Source of the DNA: Desulfobacterales bacterium
GTDB lineage: Bacteria; Desulfobacterota; Desulfobacteria; Desulfobacterales; UBA5616
Reading direction: 5' to 3'
DNA: 64,000 nt
Assembly (NCBI GenBank): GCA_046483495.1
Contig: JAWODC010000090.1
Span: 64,001 to 128,000 of the forward strand
Shown piece by piece: positions 4,124-12,928 of the stretch. The notes under the pieces were generated by a model. It had not been told where the DNA came from and made no database searches. It worked only from the letters and a program-made list of their open reading frames with translations. Numbering within the stretch: position 1 is the first letter of the stretch; every line of letters begins with the position of its first letter. A program made the translations under genes and the position numbers.

Positions 4124-5008
4124 TCAATCGTCCTTCGGGTCCACGTGAACGAGAACCTTATCCACTTGTCTGACATCCCGAATAATGCAGGTTTCCACCG
4201 TTTTGGCGATATCATGCCCCCGGCTGACGCTCATTCGCCCATCCACTACCACATGGATCTCCATCTGCAAATGCCCTGCCAGGCTGCGAACCCTTAAATC
4301 GTGCACATCGAGAACACCGTTTACAGACAGTGAACAAGCCTTGATTTTATCGACAATTTCCTCTGGGGGTGCCGTATCCGTGATCTCCCTAAACGTGCTG
4401 GTAATTATTTCCACCGCTATTTTAGCGATAAAGAAGGCGACAACCAGGGCGGCAACCGAATCTAGAAAATACCATGAAGGATTTACGATAGCGCCGGTTA
4501 CTCCGATGAGAACGGCTATCGACGAAAGGGAGTCGGTTCTATGATGCCATGCATTTGCAATAATCAGCTGATTGCCGAGGCGCTTTCCGATGTAAACGGT
4601 GTATCGGTACATTGCCTCTTTCAGGACAATGGAAACAGCGGCTCCGGCAATCGCCGTAATCGTGGGATGCCGAATCTGCTTTTCGTAGATATCTGTGATC
4701 GCCTCCACACCGATAAAAGCACCCGTTGCCAGGAGAACCAGACCCACACCGGCGGAAGCCATTGTCTCTATTCTGCCGTGGCCGAAATGATGCTCCGAGT
4801 CCGGTGGTTTTCCACCCATTTGCAGCCCCAGCAGCACCACGACATCGGTAAATAGGTCCGATACCGAGTGCACGGCATCGGCAATCAATGCCCGGCTGTC
4901 CCCGAAAACACCGGCAGCCGCTTTCAGCAGGATCAAAAGGCTGTTGACGGCAAGTCCGGCAACCGTCACCCTTCTTCCGGCATTTTGGTGAATCGTGTTA
5001 CGGGTCAT
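4124..5008 (-). CDS. Cation diffusion facilitator transporter (FieF/MamB-like)
   Basis: SRALIADAVHSVSD, HHFGHGR, HHRTD, C-terminal VHVDP. Confidence 0.93.
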   Translation of the reverse strand: MTRNTIHQNAGRRVTVAGLAVNSLLILLKAAAGVFGDSRALIADAVHSVSDLFTDVVVLLGLQMGGKPPDSEHHFGHGRIETMASAGVGLVLLATGAFIGVEAITDIYEKQIRHPTITAIAGAAVSIVLKEAMYRYTVYIGKRLGNQLIIANAWHHRTDSLSSIAVLIGVTGAIVNPSWYFLDSVAALVVAFFIAKIAVEIITSTFREITDTAPPEEIVDKIKACSLSVNGVLDVHDLRVRSLAGHLQMEIHVVVDGRMSVSRGHDIAKTVETCIIRDVRQVDKVLVHVDPKDD

Positions 5009-5304
5009 GGTTCAAAACAGCCGGTCCTGGTGCGGGTGAATGGAAACCGTTTTCATGTTTTCGTTGCCGACGTTGATCGCATTTTCGGTAAAAGCGGGTT
5101 ATAAACGCCGATTCTGAGGCAAGGCGTGATGTGCAAACCGGTGGCCATTTTAACAGCCGGCATGTCGACCCGGTCCTCTTCCGGACCAAAATCGACAATT
5201 TTGGATCCAAACTCGCCAATTGCGTCGTTTAGCGAAAAAATATCGTAAACCCTTCAACTCGTCAATTCAAATTCCACCCGAAACGGATAATATTTTTTTG
5301 CCGG

Positions 5305-5333
5305 TTGTCTTGCCAATCCGCCAAATCTATACT
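5305..5333 (+). promoter_or_regulatory. Putative sigma-70 promoter of the AAA/VWA operon
   Basis: TTGTCT-N17-TATACT upstream of ATG 5459. Confidence 0.5.
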
Positions 5334-5458
5334 ATTAATTAAACAGTGCCGTTCGTAAACGGCTGGCACCTCCATTTCCGCGTTGATCCGGACCTGAGCC
5401 CCGACACATCCATCTCAAGCTGATACGCCACTTTTGACTTTCACAGGACAAAAAAACC

Positions 5459-6289
5459 ATGACCGAGGCAATCCGAAATATTCGAATCGATGAAAAAAGC
5501 TTTGAAATTACTACGGAGCCGTTTTATCTGCCGCAAGCCGGTGAAATGTTTTTATTCGAGGCGGCCTATAATAATCAACTGCCGGTAATGCTCAAGGGGC
5601 CTACCGGCAGCGGGAAAACCCGGTTGATCGAGCACATGGCCTGGAAATTGAAACGCCCCTTGTACACCGTTGCCTGCCATGATGACCTGAGCGCCAATGA
5701 TCTGGTCGGCCGTTACATCATCGTCGGGGACGAGGTGGAATGGATCGACGGTCCTCTGTTGATGGCCCTGAAGAACGGCGGCATCGTTTACCTTGACGAA
5801 ATTGTGGAGGCCAGAAAAGACACCACCGTTGTGATTCATCCCCTCACGGACCATCGCCGGTACCTGCATGTCGAGAAGCTGGGAAAAATATTCACCGCCA
5901 GAGACGAATTTATGCTGGTCATCAGCTACAATCCGAATTACCAGAGTATCGTCAAGGAGCTCAAACCCAGCACACGTCAGCGTTTTGTGACCATCGACCT
6001 GACCTGGCCCGAAGAGGAGCTCGAAATCCGGATCATCATTCAGGAAACCGGGGTCGACCGGACAACAGCCCGGAATCTGGTAAAGGCCGCCGGTAAAATT
6101 CGGCATCTCACGCACCAGGGGCTTGAAGAAGGTGTTTCGACCCGCGAACTGGTATATGCGGGGCTGCTGCTGAAAAGCGGGGTCGCACCCAAAGATGCGC
6201 TCTATGCCACTCTGGTGGAATCGCTGACCCATGACACGGACCTCAAGGAAGGCATAACAGAAGTGCTGAAAAATTATTTTCATTTTTAG
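5459..6289 (+). CDS. CbbQ/NirQ/NorQ-family MoxR AAA+ ATPase
   Basis: Walker A GPTGSGKT, Walker B VYLDE, EARKDTTVVIHPLTD, LKPSTRQRF, GVSTRELVYAG. Confidence 0.93.
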   Translation: MTEAIRNIRIDEKSFEITTEPFYLPQAGEMFLFEAAYNNQLPVMLKGPTGSGKTRLIEHMAWKLKRPLYTVACHDDLSANDLVGRYIIVGDEVEWIDGPLLMALKNGGIVYLDEIVEARKDTTVVIHPLTDHRRYLHVEKLGKIFTARDEFMLVISYNPNYQSIVKELKPSTRQRFVTIDLTWPEEELEIRIIIQETGVDRTTARNLVKAAGKIRHLTHQGLEEGVSTRELVYAGLLLKSGVAPKDALYATLVESLTHDTDLKEGITEVLKNYFHF

Positions 6290-7657
6290 ATGGTGTCCTG
6301 TCGAATTATGGATCCGAACATAGCCCATAAAAACCCCGAAACATTCGCCGGAACGTTTTCCACGGTCGATGAACGTTCATCTTTGGACGATCTCCTGGTG
6401 TCGGTCTCACGTTCGCTTTCCAAACAGGGATCGGACATCCCGGGAAAGGTAAGGCGGCTTGGCAGCCAAATTTCCCGGTACAGCCTGAAAACAGCAGCCG
6501 GGATGATCGTATGCAGCCCCGGAATCGTTGACCGGGTCGGCTTCCAGGGGCTCGAAAAAATTTCCCGTATCGGCATCGGGCTTTCCCGGAACTGTTGGGT
6601 AACCGCCGTGGAAATGTTCAAGAACAGTCCCGGATTGATTGACGTCCTCATGCCGATGGGGGGACGCAAACTGGTCCTGGATGTATATGAGCTGAGTGAG
6701 CGGGTCTGCCCATACAGCTGGAAAACCGCTGCCGGAATGCTGGACAGCAGCCCCTCGATCATCCGGCGGGTGGGCATCGAAGGGCTATACGCGATTGCGG
6801 AAATGGGGATACGGATAGCCCCGGGATGCTGGTTGACCGCTATGGGAAATTTCGAAAAAAGCCCGCGGCTTATCGACCGGCTGTCACGTTACTGCGACAA
6901 AGAAATGATCATGGATGTTTTGGACTTAGGCGCCGCAGCATCACATACCAGTTGGCAAATGGCCGTCCGCCTCATGGAAGAAAGCCCGGCGCTTATCAGC
7001 CGTGTCGGGTTTTCCGGGCTTCAAAAAATGGCGATTTTCGGTGGAAAGATTGCACGGCACAGTTGGCTCGGTGCCGTAGAAATGATTGAAAGAAGCACGG
7101 TACTCATCGATGATATCCTCGATCTCGGAACGGCATCGCTGGTGCTTGAAATTTGCGACACCTGCGGGCGGGCGGCGGATGTGTGTTGGCGTACCGCCGT
7201 TCACCTGTTTTACAAAAGTCCCTTTCTTATCGATCGTGTCGGAACGGCGGGATTTCAGCATGTGGCAGAGAAAGCCTGTGAACTGGCACAAAGCAATACG
7301 GAAAGGGCCGTTTCCTTCATAAACGGGGAATCGTTGGAGGGCGCCTCATTTATGGCCGGCATTTCGGACGGCATCGCGCTTTCGGAAGTGAAACCGATTC
7401 TTGCCAATTACCTCAATGCACTGTTGAGTTACCGCATTGAAATCGCCGGGGCCGTGGGTCACGCAACCGACGGGCGCAAGATTTTTCTTCCCGAAAGCGT
7501 GAACGATTTCAATGAGAAGAAGAAAAATTTCATGATGTATAAAATATACGCCACCCATGAAGAGGCCCACCTGGAATACGGCAGTTTCGACTTTTCCCTT
7601 TCCGAAATCCGGGAAACCGTGGATAACATCACCGCCCGTTATGGGAAACGGTCATGA
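6290..7657 (+). CDS. Repeat (probable alpha-solenoid) protein ending in the N-terminal part of a CbbO/NorD-like domain
   Basis: Seven [S/C]WxxAxxxxxxSPxxIxR repeats; C-terminal TDGRKIFLP and HEEAHLEYGSF; abuts the AAA gene and overlaps the next gene by ATGA; alternative start at 6308. Confidence 0.8.
   Translation: MVSCRIMDPNIAHKNPETFAGTFSTVDERSSLDDLLVSVSRSLSKQGSDIPGKVRRLGSQISRYSLKTAAGMIVCSPGIVDRVGFQGLEKISRIGIGLSRNCWVTAVEMFKNSPGLIDVLMPMGGRKLVLDVYELSERVCPYSWKTAAGMLDSSPSIIRRVGIEGLYAIAEMGIRIAPGCWLTAMGNFEKSPRLIDRLSRYCDKEMIMDVLDLGAAASHTSWQMAVRLMEESPALISRVGFSGLQKMAIFGGKIARHSWLGAVEMIERSTVLIDDILDLGTASLVLEICDTCGRAADVCWRTAVHLFYKSPFLIDRVGTAGFQHVAEKACELAQSNTERAVSFINGESLEGASFMAGISDGIALSEVKPILANYLNALLSYRIEIAGAVGHATDGRKIFLPESVNDFNEKKKNFMMYKIYATHEEAHLEYGSFDFSLSEIRETVDNITARYGKRS
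6482..7294 (+). repeat. Seven tandem protein repeats alternating 37 and 41 aa (78-aa super-repeat)
   Basis: Manual alignment of aa 65-335 gives unit lengths 37/41/37/41/37/41/37. Confidence 0.88.
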
Positions 7658-9369
7658 ACGGTGCAACCGATATCGAGACGTTTTTTCAGCTTTTTCCCGA
7701 ACCGAATATGGCCCGGGATCTTTTCAATATCCTCGAGGATTTCAGGATCGAGTCGCGAATAAAAGACGAATACCCCGTTCTGGGAGAACAGGTCATCGAG
7801 GTCAACCTGTTCCTGCTGAATCGGCGGCCGGACTTAGACGACATGGCCGGCGACAAGCAGCGGATCGTCGAAATCATCGGGCAGTGGCTCACCACTGGAA
7901 AAACGAAACAGGATGTTCCCCCCCGTCTATTATCGCTCTTTGAATTCGCCCAGGCCCTTGCCGGAAAATTGGAAACCCCGCGATCATCGATTCATGATGC
8001 GGCCGCCGTCGCTTCGGAAATGTATTTCAGCATCGATGACGCCTTTCCCAAGGATGCCTACCGTCCGGTTCTTCCTTTTTCCGCTTTTATCGACCCGATG
8101 AAAACCGACAGCTATGATGCACGGCTCGGCGGCAAAGACGGTTCCAAAAGCCGTTCAGAAGCAGAACCCGAGGATAAAGACGCATCCCGACCCCCTGCGA
8201 ATGCGGCTCCTATGGAAGACCGCACCCCGCCGGTGTCACATCGTTCCGATACCGCAACCGAAGACCATCGAGAACCGGTGTTCCGGCCTTCGGATCTGCC
8301 GGAATTCGAAGCGGAAAACCCGGCCGAAGATGCCGAAGAACCCAAAAAGCGTTCCAAACGTCTGCTATTCGGCGAAGACGGCATGCAGCCGGATGATATG
8401 GACGCTGCAGATCCATTTCCGAGCGAGGCGCCGTCACGGCCCGCTGTCCCGGAATTGAGATCCTCTTCTGCAACGGGAGAGGAGCTGGAGGCGGCCCCCA
8501 TCAGCTGCCTTTACCCGGAATGGGGCGTCGATATCGAAGGCTACCGCGTCAATTGGGCACGCGTGACAGAGCGCCGGTTGTCCGGCGGATCGGAAGATTT
8601 TTACCGTAGCACATTGACCAAGTACGCCGGACTGGTGAAGAAAATCAAACGGGAATTCCAGATGCTGAGACCCGAGGGTGTGATCAAGTTCAAACGACAG
8701 GTCGATGGAAATGAGATCGATCTCGATGCCGCCGTGGAATATTTCATCGATCGAAAACTGGGGATCACCCCGTCGGAAAAAAATTATATTCGCACCCGAA
8801 AAAGCAGCCGGGACATTGCGGTCGCCTTCCTTTTGGACATGAGCGGAAGCACCCGGGGCACCGCCATTTCCCTGGAAAAGGAGGCATTGATCATCCTGTC
8901 GGAAGCGTTGCACGAACTCGGCGATACGTTCTCGATATACGGCTTTTCCGGCCACACGAGGGAAAATGTGGAATTTTTCGTCATCAAGGATTTCCTGGAG
9001 CCTTATGACCATCGGATCACCAGGAAAATATCGGCGATACGCGACCTTCACAGCACCCGTATCGGTCCCGCCATCCGTCATACCCATACCAAACTAGGCA
9101 GGCGTGAGGAAAAATTCAAACTTTTGATACTGTTGAGTGACGGAAAACCCGAAGACAGCGGATACAACGACGCCTATGGAATTGAAGATACCCGTATGGC
9201 ATTGAAGGAAGGTTTACAACAGGGAATACGGCCGTTCTGTATCACAATCGATGCGGCTGCACCGGAATACCTGCACCGGATGTACAGCCACAGCAATTGG
9301 GTGGTGATCCAAAAAATGGAAAAGCTTCCCCTGGAAATTACCCGGGTATACAAGCGCTTAACCACTTAG
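7654..9369 (+). CDS. CbbO/NorD-like VWA-domain adaptor protein
   Basis: N-terminal LFNILEDFRIE, acidic low-complexity linker, YPEW, GNEIDLDAAV, MIDAS LLDMSGS, TRIGPAIRH, LSDGKP. Confidence 0.9.
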   Translation: MNGATDIETFFQLFPEPNMARDLFNILEDFRIESRIKDEYPVLGEQVIEVNLFLLNRRPDLDDMAGDKQRIVEIIGQWLTTGKTKQDVPPRLLSLFEFAQALAGKLETPRSSIHDAAAVASEMYFSIDDAFPKDAYRPVLPFSAFIDPMKTDSYDARLGGKDGSKSRSEAEPEDKDASRPPANAAPMEDRTPPVSHRSDTATEDHREPVFRPSDLPEFEAENPAEDAEEPKKRSKRLLFGEDGMQPDDMDAADPFPSEAPSRPAVPELRSSSATGEELEAAPISCLYPEWGVDIEGYRVNWARVTERRLSGGSEDFYRSTLTKYAGLVKKIKREFQMLRPEGVIKFKRQVDGNEIDLDAAVEYFIDRKLGITPSEKNYIRTRKSSRDIAVAFLLDMSGSTRGTAISLEKEALIILSEALHELGDTFSIYGFSGHTRENVEFFVIKDFLEPYDHRITRKISAIRDLHSTRIGPAIRHTHTKLGRREEKFKLLILLSDGKPEDSGYNDAYGIEDTRMALKEGLQQGIRPFCITIDAAAPEYLHRMYSHSNWVVIQKMEKLPLEITRVYKRLTT

Positions 9370-9511
9370 TACCCATCCAGAAATGGCTGATTCGCTCCAT
9401 TTCGGCGTTGGCCGGGTAATTTTAATCCTCAAAATACTCAATGTATTCGTGCGGTTAAAATTTCCCGGCCGCCTTGAACGGAATCGAATTATCTCATTTC
9501 TGGATGGATAC
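9369..9511 (+). mobile_element. 143-bp palindromic MITE/ERIC-like element, copy A
   Basis: Terminal inverted repeats GTACCCATCCAGAAATG / CATTTCTGGATGGATAC with an internal imperfect palindrome; 6 mismatches to the reverse complement of 48016-48158. Confidence 0.88.
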
Positions 9512-9524
9512 CACGTAGTTTCCA

Positions 9525-9821
9525 TCACTCTGCAAACCCATAGTGAAACACCTCGTAGTCCGTATGCCCTCCAAGTATTTCATCGATTTCACGCTGAATA
9601 CTCCGCCGCTCCTCGCTGGACAGCCACTCTTCCCAGTCATCGGAGGATTTCCAGTTGCTGATGACGAGAAAAACATCGGGACGATCCAGGCTTCGAAGGG
9701 TTTCACCTGAAATGTAGCCCCGCCGCACAACGGCAAGAGACCTCATTTTCCTGAACAGCGGCATCACCTCTTTGGTTTTATTTTCGGGAACCACCCTTTT
9801 GATGAGGACTTTTACAGCCAT
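9525..9821 (-). CDS. Antibiotic biosynthesis monooxygenase (ABM) family protein
   Basis: GYISGETL...LVISNWKS..DWEEW pattern; about 98 aa. Confidence 0.85.
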   Translation of the reverse strand: MAVKVLIKRVVPENKTKEVMPLFRKMRSLAVVRRGYISGETLRSLDRPDVFLVISNWKSSDDWEEWLSSEERRSIQREIDEILGGHTDYEVFHYGFAE

Positions 9822-11766: not shown

Positions 11767-12027
11767 ATGAAGGTAGCGGTCTCATGTGATGCCGGCGGCA
11801 GCGGGGAAGAGACACCCCGCAGGTTCCGGCTCGGCGACAGAAAAGTTGAAGTTGCACAGATCCTGGATCGGTGGCCGGCAGCAGACCACTGGTATTATAA
11901 AATCCGTGGAGACGACGACAGCATCTATATTCTCCGCCATGATCTTATAACAAACGAGTGGGAAATGACCTTTTATACCGACGTTTCCCTGTCTTTTCCC
12001 GATGTCCCGGATCCGAAAATCATGTAA
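11767..12027 (+). CDS. Small conserved hypothetical protein
   Basis: EETPRRF..G...V..ILDRW...YYKI......YILRHD...W pattern; co-oriented between two clear genes. Confidence 0.72.
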   Translation: MKVAVSCDAGGSGEETPRRFRLGDRKVEVAQILDRWPAADHWYYKIRGDDDSIYILRHDLITNEWEMTFYTDVSLSFPDVPDPKIM

Positions 12028-12055
12028 GTTGCCTATATGGACAGCGGCCGACTGT

Positions 12056-12928
12056 ATGAACGATCTGGAGAAAATACATGTACCTGCCGAATGGCACGCG
12101 GTCCTGGAAAAAATCCCCGGGGGTGAGGTTATGGTCATCGGGGGAACGGATACGGGCAAAAGCACCTTCGTCCGCTGGCTAACCGTTCGGCTGCTCAACC
12201 GTTTCCAGCGCGTCGGCTGGATCGACTGTGATGTGGGCCAGTCCACACTCGGCCTGCCGTCCACACTGAACATGTCCCTGCTGGGTCCATCGGACTCGGC
12301 CGCAACGCCGCCCGATAAGGTGTTCTTCGTCGGTGCGACCTCACCGCGCGGTCACATGCTGCCGATGCTGGTCGGCGCCGAACGTCTGGTTCAATCCGCA
12401 CGCACCGCCGGCATCGAATGCCTGGTGACGGATACCACCGGGATAGTGAGTGCCGCCTCCGGCGGCGGCGCCCTGAAGCAGTGGAAAATAGAGCTCCTCA
12501 GGCCCGACATTGTAGTCGCTTTCGAGCATCACCGTGAACTGGACCACATTTTACAGCCCCTGGAAAAATCGCTTAAGCCGACAGTGCATCGGTTGCGGCC
12601 TTCCCCGGCCGTGCAGTTTCGTGAACCGCACATGCTGGAAAGTCTCCGATGGCAGCGGTACCGCAGCTATTTTTCAGGTGCGGTCCAACGGCATATCCCG
12701 GTTCGGAATCGGCCGGTATTCAATTCTGAAAAAGCGGCTGAAGGATCCTTGACGGCACTCCAGAATGCTTCCGGTTTTTGCCTTTCCATCGGAATCCTCT
12801 CACATCTCACCGAAAGAACGATCGAACTGATCGCCCCGCGCACGGACCTTGGCACGCTCGCCGGTATTCGTTTTGGAAATATTCGAATCGATGCTGACAG
12901 CTTGAGGGAAAAATCACCTGCGCCTTAA
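12056..12928 (+). CDS. Clp1/Grc3/Nol9-family polynucleotide 5'-hydroxyl kinase
   Basis: P-loop GGTDTGKST, DCDVGQSTLGLP, DTTG, C-terminal R..R...YF lid; start uncertain (12002 or 12056). Confidence 0.85.
   Translation: MNDLEKIHVPAEWHAVLEKIPGGEVMVIGGTDTGKSTFVRWLTVRLLNRFQRVGWIDCDVGQSTLGLPSTLNMSLLGPSDSAATPPDKVFFVGATSPRGHMLPMLVGAERLVQSARTAGIECLVTDTTGIVSAASGGGALKQWKIELLRPDIVVAFEHHRELDHILQPLEKSLKPTVHRLRPSPAVQFREPHMLESLRWQRYRSYFSGAVQRHIPVRNRPVFNSEKAAEGSLTALQNASGFCLSIGILSHLTERTIELIAPRTDLGTLAGIRFGNIRIDADSLREKSPAP

Follow-up and report, generated by a model that had tools for sequence, protein, structure and literature searches.

Two clients are proven for motors of the CbbQ/NorQ type, Rubisco and cNOR, and most of the copies sampled in Desulfobacterota adjoin neither. 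One such copy lies in the 64,000-nucleotide stretch of a Desulfobacterales genome that we analyzed (hereafter, the window), where it is followed by genes for a repeat protein and a VWA protein (Q, R and V, respectively). We asked what kind of machine these three genes encode and on what it may act.

The Q-R-V operon and its ATPase

The predicted three-gene operon was borne out in full by the ORF coordinates: the genes lie on the same strand, with no nucleotide between Q and R and an ATGA stop/start overlap between R and V (Table 1). Upstream, sigma70-like matches were found for the operon (plus strand, 5305-5333) and for the divergent CDF gene (minus strand, 5316-5287), with scores of 9/12 and 10/12, and the region 4950-9700 holds eight such sites, compared with 3.8 +/- 1.7 in shuffles. 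A block resembling the putative promoter was also seen, by eye, 5' of the ATPase gene in two other loci (L036 and L038). Short contigs from RNA libraries gave exact matches to portions of Q and R and to the Q/R junction (6121-6351), whereas V had no coverage; such contigs cannot prove transcription, and the missing V coverage is uninformative. As for the neighbors named in the original prediction, the CDF gene is indeed divergent and adjacent, and of the acyl-CoA genes the nearest acyl-CoA dehydrogenase genes start 6.6 kb downstream; the upstream side of the operon carries an SDR and a TPP enzyme.

Table 1. Positions, in window coordinates, of the genes and features discussed in the text.
Feature	Position (nt)	Strand	Remarks
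CDF transporter, FieF/MamB-like group, divergent neighbor	4124-5008	-	not shown as part of the system
Overlapping divergent sigma70-like promoter matches	5287-5333	both	consensus match only
Q, CbbQ/NorQ-type MoxR AAA+ ATPase gene	5459-6289	+	ORF1, 276 aa
R, repeat-protein gene	6290-7657	+	ORF2, 455 aa
Alpha-solenoid arm of R, residues ~60-345	6467-7324	+	~8 alternating 37/41-aa helix-turn-helix repeats
First half of gluzincin/CobT-N-like domain, R residues 348-455	7331-7657	+	beta-sheet, TDG..LP, HEEAH (residues 423-427, nt 7556-7570)
ATGA overlap of R stop and V start, recurrent fission site	7654-7657	+	
V, VWA-protein gene	7654-9369	+	ORF3, 571 aa
Second half of gluzincin-like domain, V residues 1-148	7654-8097	+	E28-D29-x-R31
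Acidic, poorly conserved linker of V, residues ~150-280	8101-8493	+	33 D+E in 131 aa
NorD-type finger region and VWA domain of V, residues 285-571	8506-9369	+	

Q matched AAA_5 (E 8.5e-32) and CbbQ_C (E 3.1e-26), and its motifs include a Walker A (GPTGSGKT, at 47), an H2 insert (GRYII, 84) and a Walker B (IVYLDE, 109), as well as STRQRF (171) and STRE (227). The features that mark a CbbQ/NirQ/NorQ-type ATPase, i.e., Walker A and B, H2 insert, arginine finger and sensor 2, were all found. Against solved structures, Q aligned with NorQ (9qh4, E 1e-89) and CbbQ (5c3c, E 8e-88), and distantly with CobS (E 2e-4). In phylogenies it fell within a clade of its own, with a support of 100/100 (34 of 71 sequences in one tree and 16 of 55 in another), whose members are both bacterial and archaeal, the latter judged by their source names ('Halobacteriota archaeon', 'uncultured archaeon') and by mtr, histone and MCR_C neighbors. 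In these trees, it lies outside the NorQ and CbbQ sequences sampled. The original prediction had named, as part of what would refute it, a grouping of the ATPase with bona fide CbbQ or NorQ; Q was not nested among norCB-linked NorQ (its clade stood at 100 outside eight NorQ-type sequences, the deep branching order being loose), nor was it joined to Rubisco-linked CbbQ, of which the trees hold a single sequence (L124), form II and carboxysomal CbbQ being absent.

An adaptor encoded by two genes

V matched VWA and CobT_C, and its residues 285-569 aligned with NorD (9qhd_G, E 3e-43). Its MIDAS is intact (D395-x-S397-x-S399, T468, D496) and its C-terminal TT is conserved; as an adjacent partner of the ATPase with a C-terminal finger and a VWA domain, V has what is expected of an adaptor. 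The linker of V is likely the counterpart of the linker of NorD (PMC13036017). R had no meaningful match in Pfam or NCBIfam. AlphaFold modeled its repeats as a solenoid built of helices only, 293 residues having a pLDDT of at least 90, and most of the repeats carry (S/C)W at the turn. The best structural matches of the arm were designed helical repeats (Z 9.4, rmsd 11.2; Z 9.1, rmsd 4.9), with TOG/HEAT at Z ~7 and rmsd > 10, and across the clade arms have anywhere from some 8 repeats to well over 15. A TALE-like mode of binding nucleic acids was considered for the repeats and set aside (Foldseek E ~0.1, TM <= 0.2).

R makes up the N-terminal half of an adaptor of the NorD/CbbO type, and is not a third kind of component. 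The C-terminus of R and V both matched single proteins (906 and 1048 aa) that adjoin two paralogous ATPases in the same genome. Within the own clade, 23 adaptors are fused and 13 split, with the cut at the same site in all split ones, and the R-V fusion is also found in nearly all outer relatives. Fused own-clade proteins read through the junction uninterrupted, some retaining an internal MNG-x-SD there, and ten of the 14 split junctions shown have the ATGA, the remaining four overlapping or abutting at the same place. On a tree of the 13 split and 23 fused own-clade sequences with three fused outgroups, the split state changed at least six times; split and fused forms pair as sisters (L048, split, with L052, fused, at 100; L089 with L090 at 99), and a single split clade was rejected (p-AU 3.95e-10). 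Fission of the adaptor is recurrent, and occurs at one site.

The two halves are predicted to interlock into one domain. Alone, the C-terminal part of R folded poorly (pLDDT ~45-68, compared with mostly 86-97 in a fused homologue). Co-folding V1-150 with R300-455 gave an ipSAE of 0.83, the best of three controls reaching 0.00, and the runs shared at least 88% of contacts, with a partner pLDDT of at least 80; 116 of 157 solved pairs attained that ipSAE, as did 2 of 215 mismatched ones, and split-gene halves can pass such a test through likeness to solved structures. In the model, R(390-451) and V(6-148) would form a single gluzincin/M48C-like domain to which both chains contribute, with His423 and His427 from R and Glu28/Asp29 from V. 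Both elements expected of a gluzincin, an HExxH and a downstream Glu, could be located, the former as HEEAH on R and the latter as E28/D29 on V, and they are predicted to touch (V28-R427, V29-R423). E28-D29-x-R31 is invariant in 13 of 13 split V proteins, and both histidines are conserved in 51 of 56 own-clade sequences versus 20 of 75 others (14 of those unparsed). The position of the catalytic Glu is held in 36 of the 56, split ones included, and taken by Gln (HQEAH/HQEGH) in 15, while the two paralogues in the genome are without the His site (LEAGF, HQAGY). The best VIA matches of the junction domain were zincins (ZMPSTE24, Z 6.1, rmsd 5.2, 150 aligned; BepA, Z 5.5, rmsd 3.3, 113 aligned; abylysin and selecase, Z 5.1), a modest kind of fold evidence, as Z-scores of 5-6 are also reached by unrelated models. 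Atlas features indicated CobT (PF06213, 0.91). Foldseek returned no match at E <= 0.001, a profile search found no solved relative, and comparison with the N-terminal domain of alphaproteobacterial NorD detected no similarity (E ~7).

Could R nevertheless be an evolutionarily separate specificity subunit of a true three-component system, as the original prediction supposed? The split form is kept in four of six same-family genomes, R and V also form many stand-alone clusters, and five of 11 'solo' R loci (L045, L050, L056, L057 and L071) have no V within at least 2 kb downstream, with the solo R proteins retaining the interface residues. However, R and V are fused in 23 of 36 own-clade sequences, in the two in-genome paralogues and in almost every outer relative, and the cut crosses a single folding domain; as to its origin, the separate subunit is largely refuted, and we give this reading very little credence. 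Another reading, that the locus is a frameshifted pseudogene or a misassembled NorD-like fusion, would fit the majority of fused homologues and the position of V in the -1 frame relative to R, but it is practically negligible: the same junction, with its Met and purine-rich upstream bases, is conserved in three other family genomes and in archaeal-type contigs, every catalytic motif is intact, and the R and V genes are sometimes unlinked. A programmed frameshift was also rejected, as the V frame has a TAA stop nine codons 5' of its ATG and no in-frame slippery heptamer was seen.

Candidate clients and mode of action

The source genome (96.7% complete) gave no PF00016 match, the same search being positive as a control in five of 14 genomes, and its lone PF00115 match proved to be subunit I of a cytochrome c oxidase. 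The genome-wide check thus found neither the RbcL family nor NorB, in agreement with the claim that Rubisco and cNOR client genes are absent and, together with the place of Q outside norCB-linked NorQ, with that of an uncharacterised CbbQ/NorQ-type AAA+/VWA system. Being an 'orphan' is the norm for the family in Desulfobacterota: norB adjoins three of 60 loci of relatives, and rbcL none of 60. In outer Desulfobacterota relatives, the only recurring neighbor was a TraB-family gene (13 of 62 loci), the others being housekeeping genes. A literature search, mostly without subscription journals, found no paper on the own clade.

Acyl-CoA genes as a class did not distinguish the own clade, being near 10 of 20 bacterial loci (barely above the genome background of 39%) and near none of the 12 archaeal-type loci with sufficient flank; L055 (3HCDH and ECH directly upstream) and L061 (ECH) have short flanks and were left out of this count. 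Five archaeal own-clade loci are preceded by an mtr operon. ACD/SucCD-type genes, by comparison, lie within 4.5 kb in seven of 20 bacterial own-clade loci (one of them SucCD) versus a genome background of 8.6%. Their arrangement takes about four different forms, and the C11-type paralogue has such genes as neighbors too (L002, L151 and L154). All eight genomes verified to carry an own-clade ATPase have 11-25 PF13607 matches, as against a median of 4 in 56 relatives without it, four of which reach 11. These ACD-rich genomes represent three lineages only, and two same-family genomes without the own clade still have 19 and 23 PF13607 matches. Beta-oxidation genes are generally expanded in the ACD-rich genomes (49 ACAD and 47 ECH in the studied one, which also has 22 ACD-type proteins), the studied locus has no ACD gene within 4.5 kb, and to our knowledge there is no precedent for an ACD requiring an activase. 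An enzyme of CoA metabolism is a tentative proposal for the client, and an ACD-type synthetase specifically a doubtful one; of the leads available, ADP-forming acyl-CoA synthetases are the best, albeit weak.

We are confident of the architecture and motor logic, and consider it probable that Q is a CbbQ/NorQ-type AAA+ motor whose NorD/CbbO-type adaptor is split into two halves predicted to rejoin and which remodels its client by NorQD-like, ATP-driven twisting, the client most likely being a CoA-thioester enzyme such as an ADP-forming acyl-CoA synthetase. By analogy with NorQD and CobST, Q would assemble as a hexamer with the finger and C-terminus of V in its pore, and the joined R/V domain would dock on the small subdomain of Q as a stator. 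The client would be gripped at two points, by the MIDAS and by the solenoid arm, and ATP hydrolysed hand over hand would extend the linker and prise the client open, freeing a stuck ligand or admitting a cofactor. The earlier idea that the repeat subunit chooses a different client survives in part: the arm is plausibly a specificity element, but as part of the VWA adaptor and not as a separate subunit.

Two other functions could be envisaged for the shared site. In the one, its His-x3-His and Glu would bind a divalent metal and deliver it to a client metalloenzyme, in coordination with the CDF exporter. The conservation of the His pair in the own clade and of E28/D29 in split V proteins speaks for this, as do a CDF gene within 4.5 kb in six of 20 bacterial loci (background 0.9%) and beside the archaeal L048/L052, and the precedent of NorQD and CobST as metal-insertion motors (PMC9976466, PMC13036017). 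Yet the neighboring CDFs belong to three kinds that are unrelated to one another (23-32% identity; FieF/MamB-like vs ZitB-like) and come from three lineages, and some enrichment is expected by chance because many neighbor families were examined; moreover, both paralogues have lost the site, and iron delivery by NorQD itself is considered unlikely (PMC9976466). We regard metal insertion as unlikely. In the other, a gluzincin site active only upon R-V assembly would make the system an ATP-dependent, client-specific protease, with the solenoid picking the substrate and the motor presenting it. Although HEEAH retains the catalytic Glu position in most of the own clade and the fold neighbors are M48 and minigluzincin peptidases, Gln replaces this Glu in many members and the paralogues keep the operon without the histidines. 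Furthermore, the accessible part of the CobT report mentions no peptidase activity for CobT-N (10.64898/2026.07.21.739949), and the pore of MoxR motors of this group holds the adaptor finger and not a substrate (PMC13036017), making a protease quite improbable.

Beyond the remodeling motor favored here, the fission could itself be functional, which we consider a long shot. R would then be a swappable arm whose repeats encode client recognition; by clipping onto a shared Q-V motor, it would supply in trans what a metal site, possibly a peptidase site, needs to be complete. With unlinked R genes, archaea could use a single motor for several clients, and the remodeling system, common to bacteria and methane/alkane-oxidising archaea, would act on acyl-CoA enzymes in anaerobic fatty-acid/alkane oxidisers. 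As it stands, the studied operon is an architectural variant with a testable, if weak, client lead. In the own clade the adaptor comes naturally dissected, its client-facing arm and motor-facing VWA being encoded separately and a conserved, putative metal-type site spanning both chains. Automated 'NorD' or 'Rubisco activase' labels on such copies mislead metabolic reconstructions, and identifying the client would add a new class of MoxR ATPase substrate in hydrocarbon-/fatty-acid-oxidising anaerobes.

Comparison with known systems

BssE/BssF-type ATPase-VWA pairs serve fumarate-adding glycyl-radical clusters and, like the studied operon, combine a MoxR-type ATPase with a VWA protein in an anaerobic degrader. 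The contig has two pairs of this kind, located 27-44 kb upstream of the window inside a glycyl-radical cluster, and their ATPases are a very distant outgroup to Q; the cluster therefore has chaperones of its own, and we rejected the operon as a part of it. CbbQ/CbbO is a Rubisco activase, a function also cited in PMC9976466. The likeness to it (PDB 5c3c, 6l1q) lies in the close match of Q to CbbQ and in a weak match of the junction-domain profile to the CbbO encoded next to the form I Rubisco of Cereibacter (L124, E 1.5e-5, FEDAR motif), whereas the studied system has no RbcL-family gene found in its genome, a separate ATPase clade, a long repeat arm and a fission.

With CobS/CobT of cobaltochelatase (10.64898/2026.07.21.739949; 10.64898/2026.10.09.757910), the operon shares the CobT_C match on V. 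CobT-N is reported to be similar to peptidase M48C and to bind the small AAA+ subdomain as well as its client, CobN (10.64898/2026.07.21.739949), which agrees with the fold neighbors and Atlas match of the R/V junction domain. Unlike in that system, CobS is distant from Q, no cobN occurs in the annotated loci, and the accessible text describes no counterpart of the repeat arm for CobT. NorQ/NorD, finally, inserts FeB into cNOR (PDB 9qh4-9qhg; PMC9976466, PMC13036017). The studied system differs from it in that no norB was found in the genome, Q lies outside the norCB-linked sequences, the adaptor is split in two with a solenoid arm added, and its His-x3-His and Glu site is absent from the alphaproteobacterial NorD sequences compared. 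It shares with NorQ/NorD the ATPase family, the finger and VWA with an intact MIDAS, and the layout of N-domain, linker and VWA, in which NorD uses its N-terminal domain to bind NorQ, the same role as that of CobT-N (PMC13036017).

The operon and its surroundings

The three open reading frames, with the 0-nt gap and ATGA overlap described in the original prediction, were confirmed. They encode a CbbQ/NorQ-type MoxR AAA+ ATPase (Q), a repeat protein (R) and a VWA protein (V). Walker A and B, the H2 insert, the arginine finger and sensor 2 are intact in Q, as is the MIDAS in V, and a domain family search of the operon proteins gave no family match for R. The operon's own promoter, also predicted, stands as a candidate, a consensus match only, ~125 nt 5' of Q and back to back with the promoter-like site of a divergent CDF metal transporter gene.

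Features of the operon and its downstream flank, in window coordinates
Feature	Position	Strand	Description
Q	5459-6289	+	276 aa; AAA_5 and CbbQ_C matches
R	6290-7657	+	455 aa; 0-nt gap after Q
V	7654-9369	+	571 aa; VWA and CobT_C matches; ATGA overlap with R
Palindromic element	9370-9510		~140 bp, directly after the V stop; terminal inverted repeats
Clp1-type P-loop gene	12002-12928		polynucleotide-kinase-like; PF16575 E 2e-29; bacterial host

The palindrome forms one long hairpin (-63.6 kcal/mol), is MITE/REP-like and has 124 blastn matches of at least 110 nt across the genome, a count in which a single copy is sometimes matched on both strands. Contig depth there is high in DNA and RNA runs, and the element was not evident by eye behind V in loci L037 and L038.

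The source genome (4.19 Mb, 96.7% complete; window on contig C56) gave no RbcL-family match, and the one hit to the heme-copper oxidase family is subunit I of a cytochrome c oxidase; the lack of Rubisco and cNOR noted for the window was seen in this genome search as well. Contig C70 carries a cytochrome c oxidase operon in this Desulfobacterales genome (L004), its CoxII bearing a cytochrome c motif and its CoxI joined, by eye, to a CoxIII-like part (912 aa). Acyl-CoA enzymes are abundant (49 ACAD, 47 ECH and 25 ACD/SucCD-like by blastp, ACD being ADP-forming acyl-CoA synthetase). Upstream of the window lies a glycyl-radical cluster (G000:C56:1338-37897; L131-L133), which we take to resemble a fumarate-adding hydrocarbon-activation system and which has two MoxR ATPase/VWA pairs of its own. 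It encodes an 844-aa glycyl-radical enzyme, its activating radical-SAM enzyme, and methylmalonyl-CoA-mutase-like, CoA-transferase and benzoyl-CoA-reductase/dehydratase-like proteins (several labels by eye); PFL-family genes number five genome-wide. Contig C82 begins (L001:199-1760) with phytoene-synthase-like and lycopene-cyclase-like genes (by eye), followed by an apparently truncated Tex gene (577 aa vs ~755 in relatives); these contig-start genes are possibly a foreign insert or a mis-assembly.

A split adaptor and its junction domain

Two other CbbQ-type operons in the source genome (C82-type and C11-type) each have a single-protein partner, of 906 and 1048 aa, matching both the R C-terminus and V. 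The prediction of the repeat protein as a separate third subunit was therefore not borne out: R is the front half of an adaptor that is fused in both in-genome paralogues. Across 80 metagenome loci and the fetched genome loci, homologues were fused (938-1486 aa where complete), split-adjacent, or R without a nearby V. The fission site is constant, after a YG-x(2-4) motif, and ATGA occurs at 10 of the 14 junctions printed for the own clade (Q's closest ATPases and their adaptors, bacterial and archaeal-type). On a V-part tree of 13 split, 23 fused and 3 fused outgroup proteins (partial V proteins and near-duplicates excluded), the state changed six times, fissions and re-fusions taken together, with split and fused sister pairs supported at 99-100. 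A single split clade was rejected (p-AU 3.95e-10). Outside the own clade, the three-gene form was found on a Miltoncostaea plasmid, where it adjoins CoA ligase, OB-fold protein and thiolase genes.

Complete R-type genes in L045, L050, L056, L057 and L071 end at the fission site, with V absent for 2-8 kb downstream, and further solo genes have short flanks (L044, L059, L063, L064, L068, L070); Q is mostly absent upstream of solo genes, and their interface residues are kept. Outer-clade adaptors in L040 (436+399 aa) and L168 (590+341 aa) are broken at other positions and may be pseudogenes or independent fissions.

The C-terminal 100 residues of R have low AlphaFold confidence when modelled alone, and the same stretch in a fused homologue gives a confident model (mean pLDDT 83.5). 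Co-folding V1-150 with R300-455 scored 0.83 (best control 0.00); among solved pairs 116 of 157 reach this mark, and among mismatched ones 2 of 215 do. At least 88% of contacts were shared between runs, partner pLDDT was 80 or more, and the predicted contacts across chains pair V-E28 with R-H427 and V-D29 with R-H423. These models support binding of the R and V halves to each other, as support rather than proof, because split-gene halves can score by likeness.

Structural neighbours of this junction domain are zincins at modest scores (ZMPSTE24, Z 6.1; BepA, 5.5; abylysin and selecase, 5.1). Foldseek and profile searches for relatives returned nothing, and Atlas features pointed to CobT (0.91). 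In a preprint (10.64898/2026.07.21.739949), CobT-N is described as peptidase M48C-like and as touching its client CobN as well as the small AAA+ subdomain. The junction-domain profile weakly matched a CbbO encoded beside Rubisco (E 1.5e-5) and NorD from Desulfobacterota (E 2e-6 to 4e-5), with no match to alphaproteobacterial NorD. Of 56 own-clade rows, 51 have both histidines (36 as HEEAH, 15 with Gln), as do 20 of 75 rows outside the clade (14 of the 75 unparsed), three duplicate loci being left out.

The remainder of R is an arm of ~8 repeats in strict 37-/41-residue alternation, six with (S/C)W at the turn. It was modelled as a helical solenoid closest to designed repeat proteins. Archaeal-type proteins have ~10-12 repeats and 1400-aa bacterial ones more. 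A 42-sequence profile found 606 representatives at E <= 0.001 (46 at E <= 1e-30), and Atlas contains unnamed look-alike clusters, the commonest recorded phyla being Acidobacteriota, Chloroflexota and Nitrospirota.

Phylogeny and genomic neighbours

Q is roughly equidistant from NorQ and CbbQ structures. Its fully supported clade, bacterial and archaeal-type, includes none of the eight NorQ-type rows, and the sole Rubisco-linked CbbQ sampled does not join it, a placement that holds at clade level and not for the deep order. On this sampling, the predicted AAA+ system other than the Rubisco and cNOR ones is supported. CbbQ_C was matched in 58 of 251 Desulfobacterota genomes; among 60 loci fetched in searches of Desulfobacterota and relatives, 3 adjoin norB and none adjoins rbcL; a long R-type adaptor is present in most. 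The own clade is represented in 5 of 61 relatives, and three more genomes that have it belong to one other family. In the C82-type clade, the sole widely conserved neighbour is a TraB-family gene divergent from the Q paralogue (13 of 62 loci: L001, L140-L142, L144, L145, L147, L152, L155, L156, L161, L195, L196). A distant long-adaptor clade (L095, L099, L106, L110, L116, L118) lies downstream of ETF alpha/beta, a CCG-domain Fe-S oxidoreductase and coaE.

Neighbours were counted within 4.5 kb, against random positions in the source genome. Of 23 bacterial own-clade loci, 20 entered the count and 3 with short flanks were set aside; of 18 archaeal-type loci, 12 entered it and 6 were set aside, L055 and L061 among them. 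No universal neighbour emerged among the own-clade loci surveyed. The acyl-CoA neighbourhood pointed out in the prediction scarcely exceeds background as a class: such genes lie near 10 of the 20 bacterial loci, against a 39% background, and near 0 of the 12 archaeal-type loci; among the loci set aside, 3HCDH and ECH stand immediately upstream in L055, and ECH occurs in L061. Five archaeal loci are preceded by mtrH.

ACD-type synthetase genes lie near 7 of the 20 bacterial loci (one being SucCD) vs 8.6% background. Their arrangements are of several kinds, and they also adjoin the C11-type paralogue; the present locus has none beside it. In each of the 8 genomes where an own-clade ATPase was verified, which represent three lineages, PF13607 has 11-25 matches, vs a median of 4 in relatives lacking one (4 of 56 reach 11); two ACD-rich family members lack the own clade. 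An ACD-type expansion, mostly of alpha-subunit length, was seen in G000 (the source genome), G001-G005, G091, G129 and G195 (13-25 PF13607 matches vs a median of ~4 in the order). CDF exporters, of three unrelated kinds, lie near 6 of the 20 bacterial loci vs 0.9% background, and near two archaeal-type loci. Both client leads, ACD and CDF, are weak and entangled with kinship among the genomes.

A possible remodelling cycle

In reports on NorQD (PMC13036017, PMC9976466), the hexamer pore is engaged by the finger and C-terminus of the VWA protein, and a small subdomain provides the docking site for the N-terminal domain; the proposed effect of ATP turnover is to stretch the linker that separates two client grips. 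CobST is described similarly (10.64898/2026.10.09.757910). Since the parts required for such a cycle are present in Q-R-V, we infer that the same ATP-driven cycle probably acts on its client, in which the junction domain would be the stator and the R solenoid an enlarged second grip.

The remodelled client is perhaps a CoA-thioester enzyme, the favoured if tentative assignment; among these an ACD-type synthetase would be the first choice, doubtful as it is, with its enrichment near bacterial loci on one side and its absence beside this operon on the other. The main rival, metal donation from a site between R and V, seems similarly unlikely; the paired histidines and CDF neighbours bear on it, the latter being of unrelated kinds. 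Proteolysis by Q-R-V, set beside the modest zincin likeness, is a minor rival and decidedly improbable.

A literature search of partial coverage found no published description of the own clade. Compared with NorQD and CbbQO, remodelling by Q-R-V would share their mode of working, but neither of their clients was found in the genome, and the ATPase falls outside the NorQ-type and Rubisco-linked CbbQ sequences sampled.
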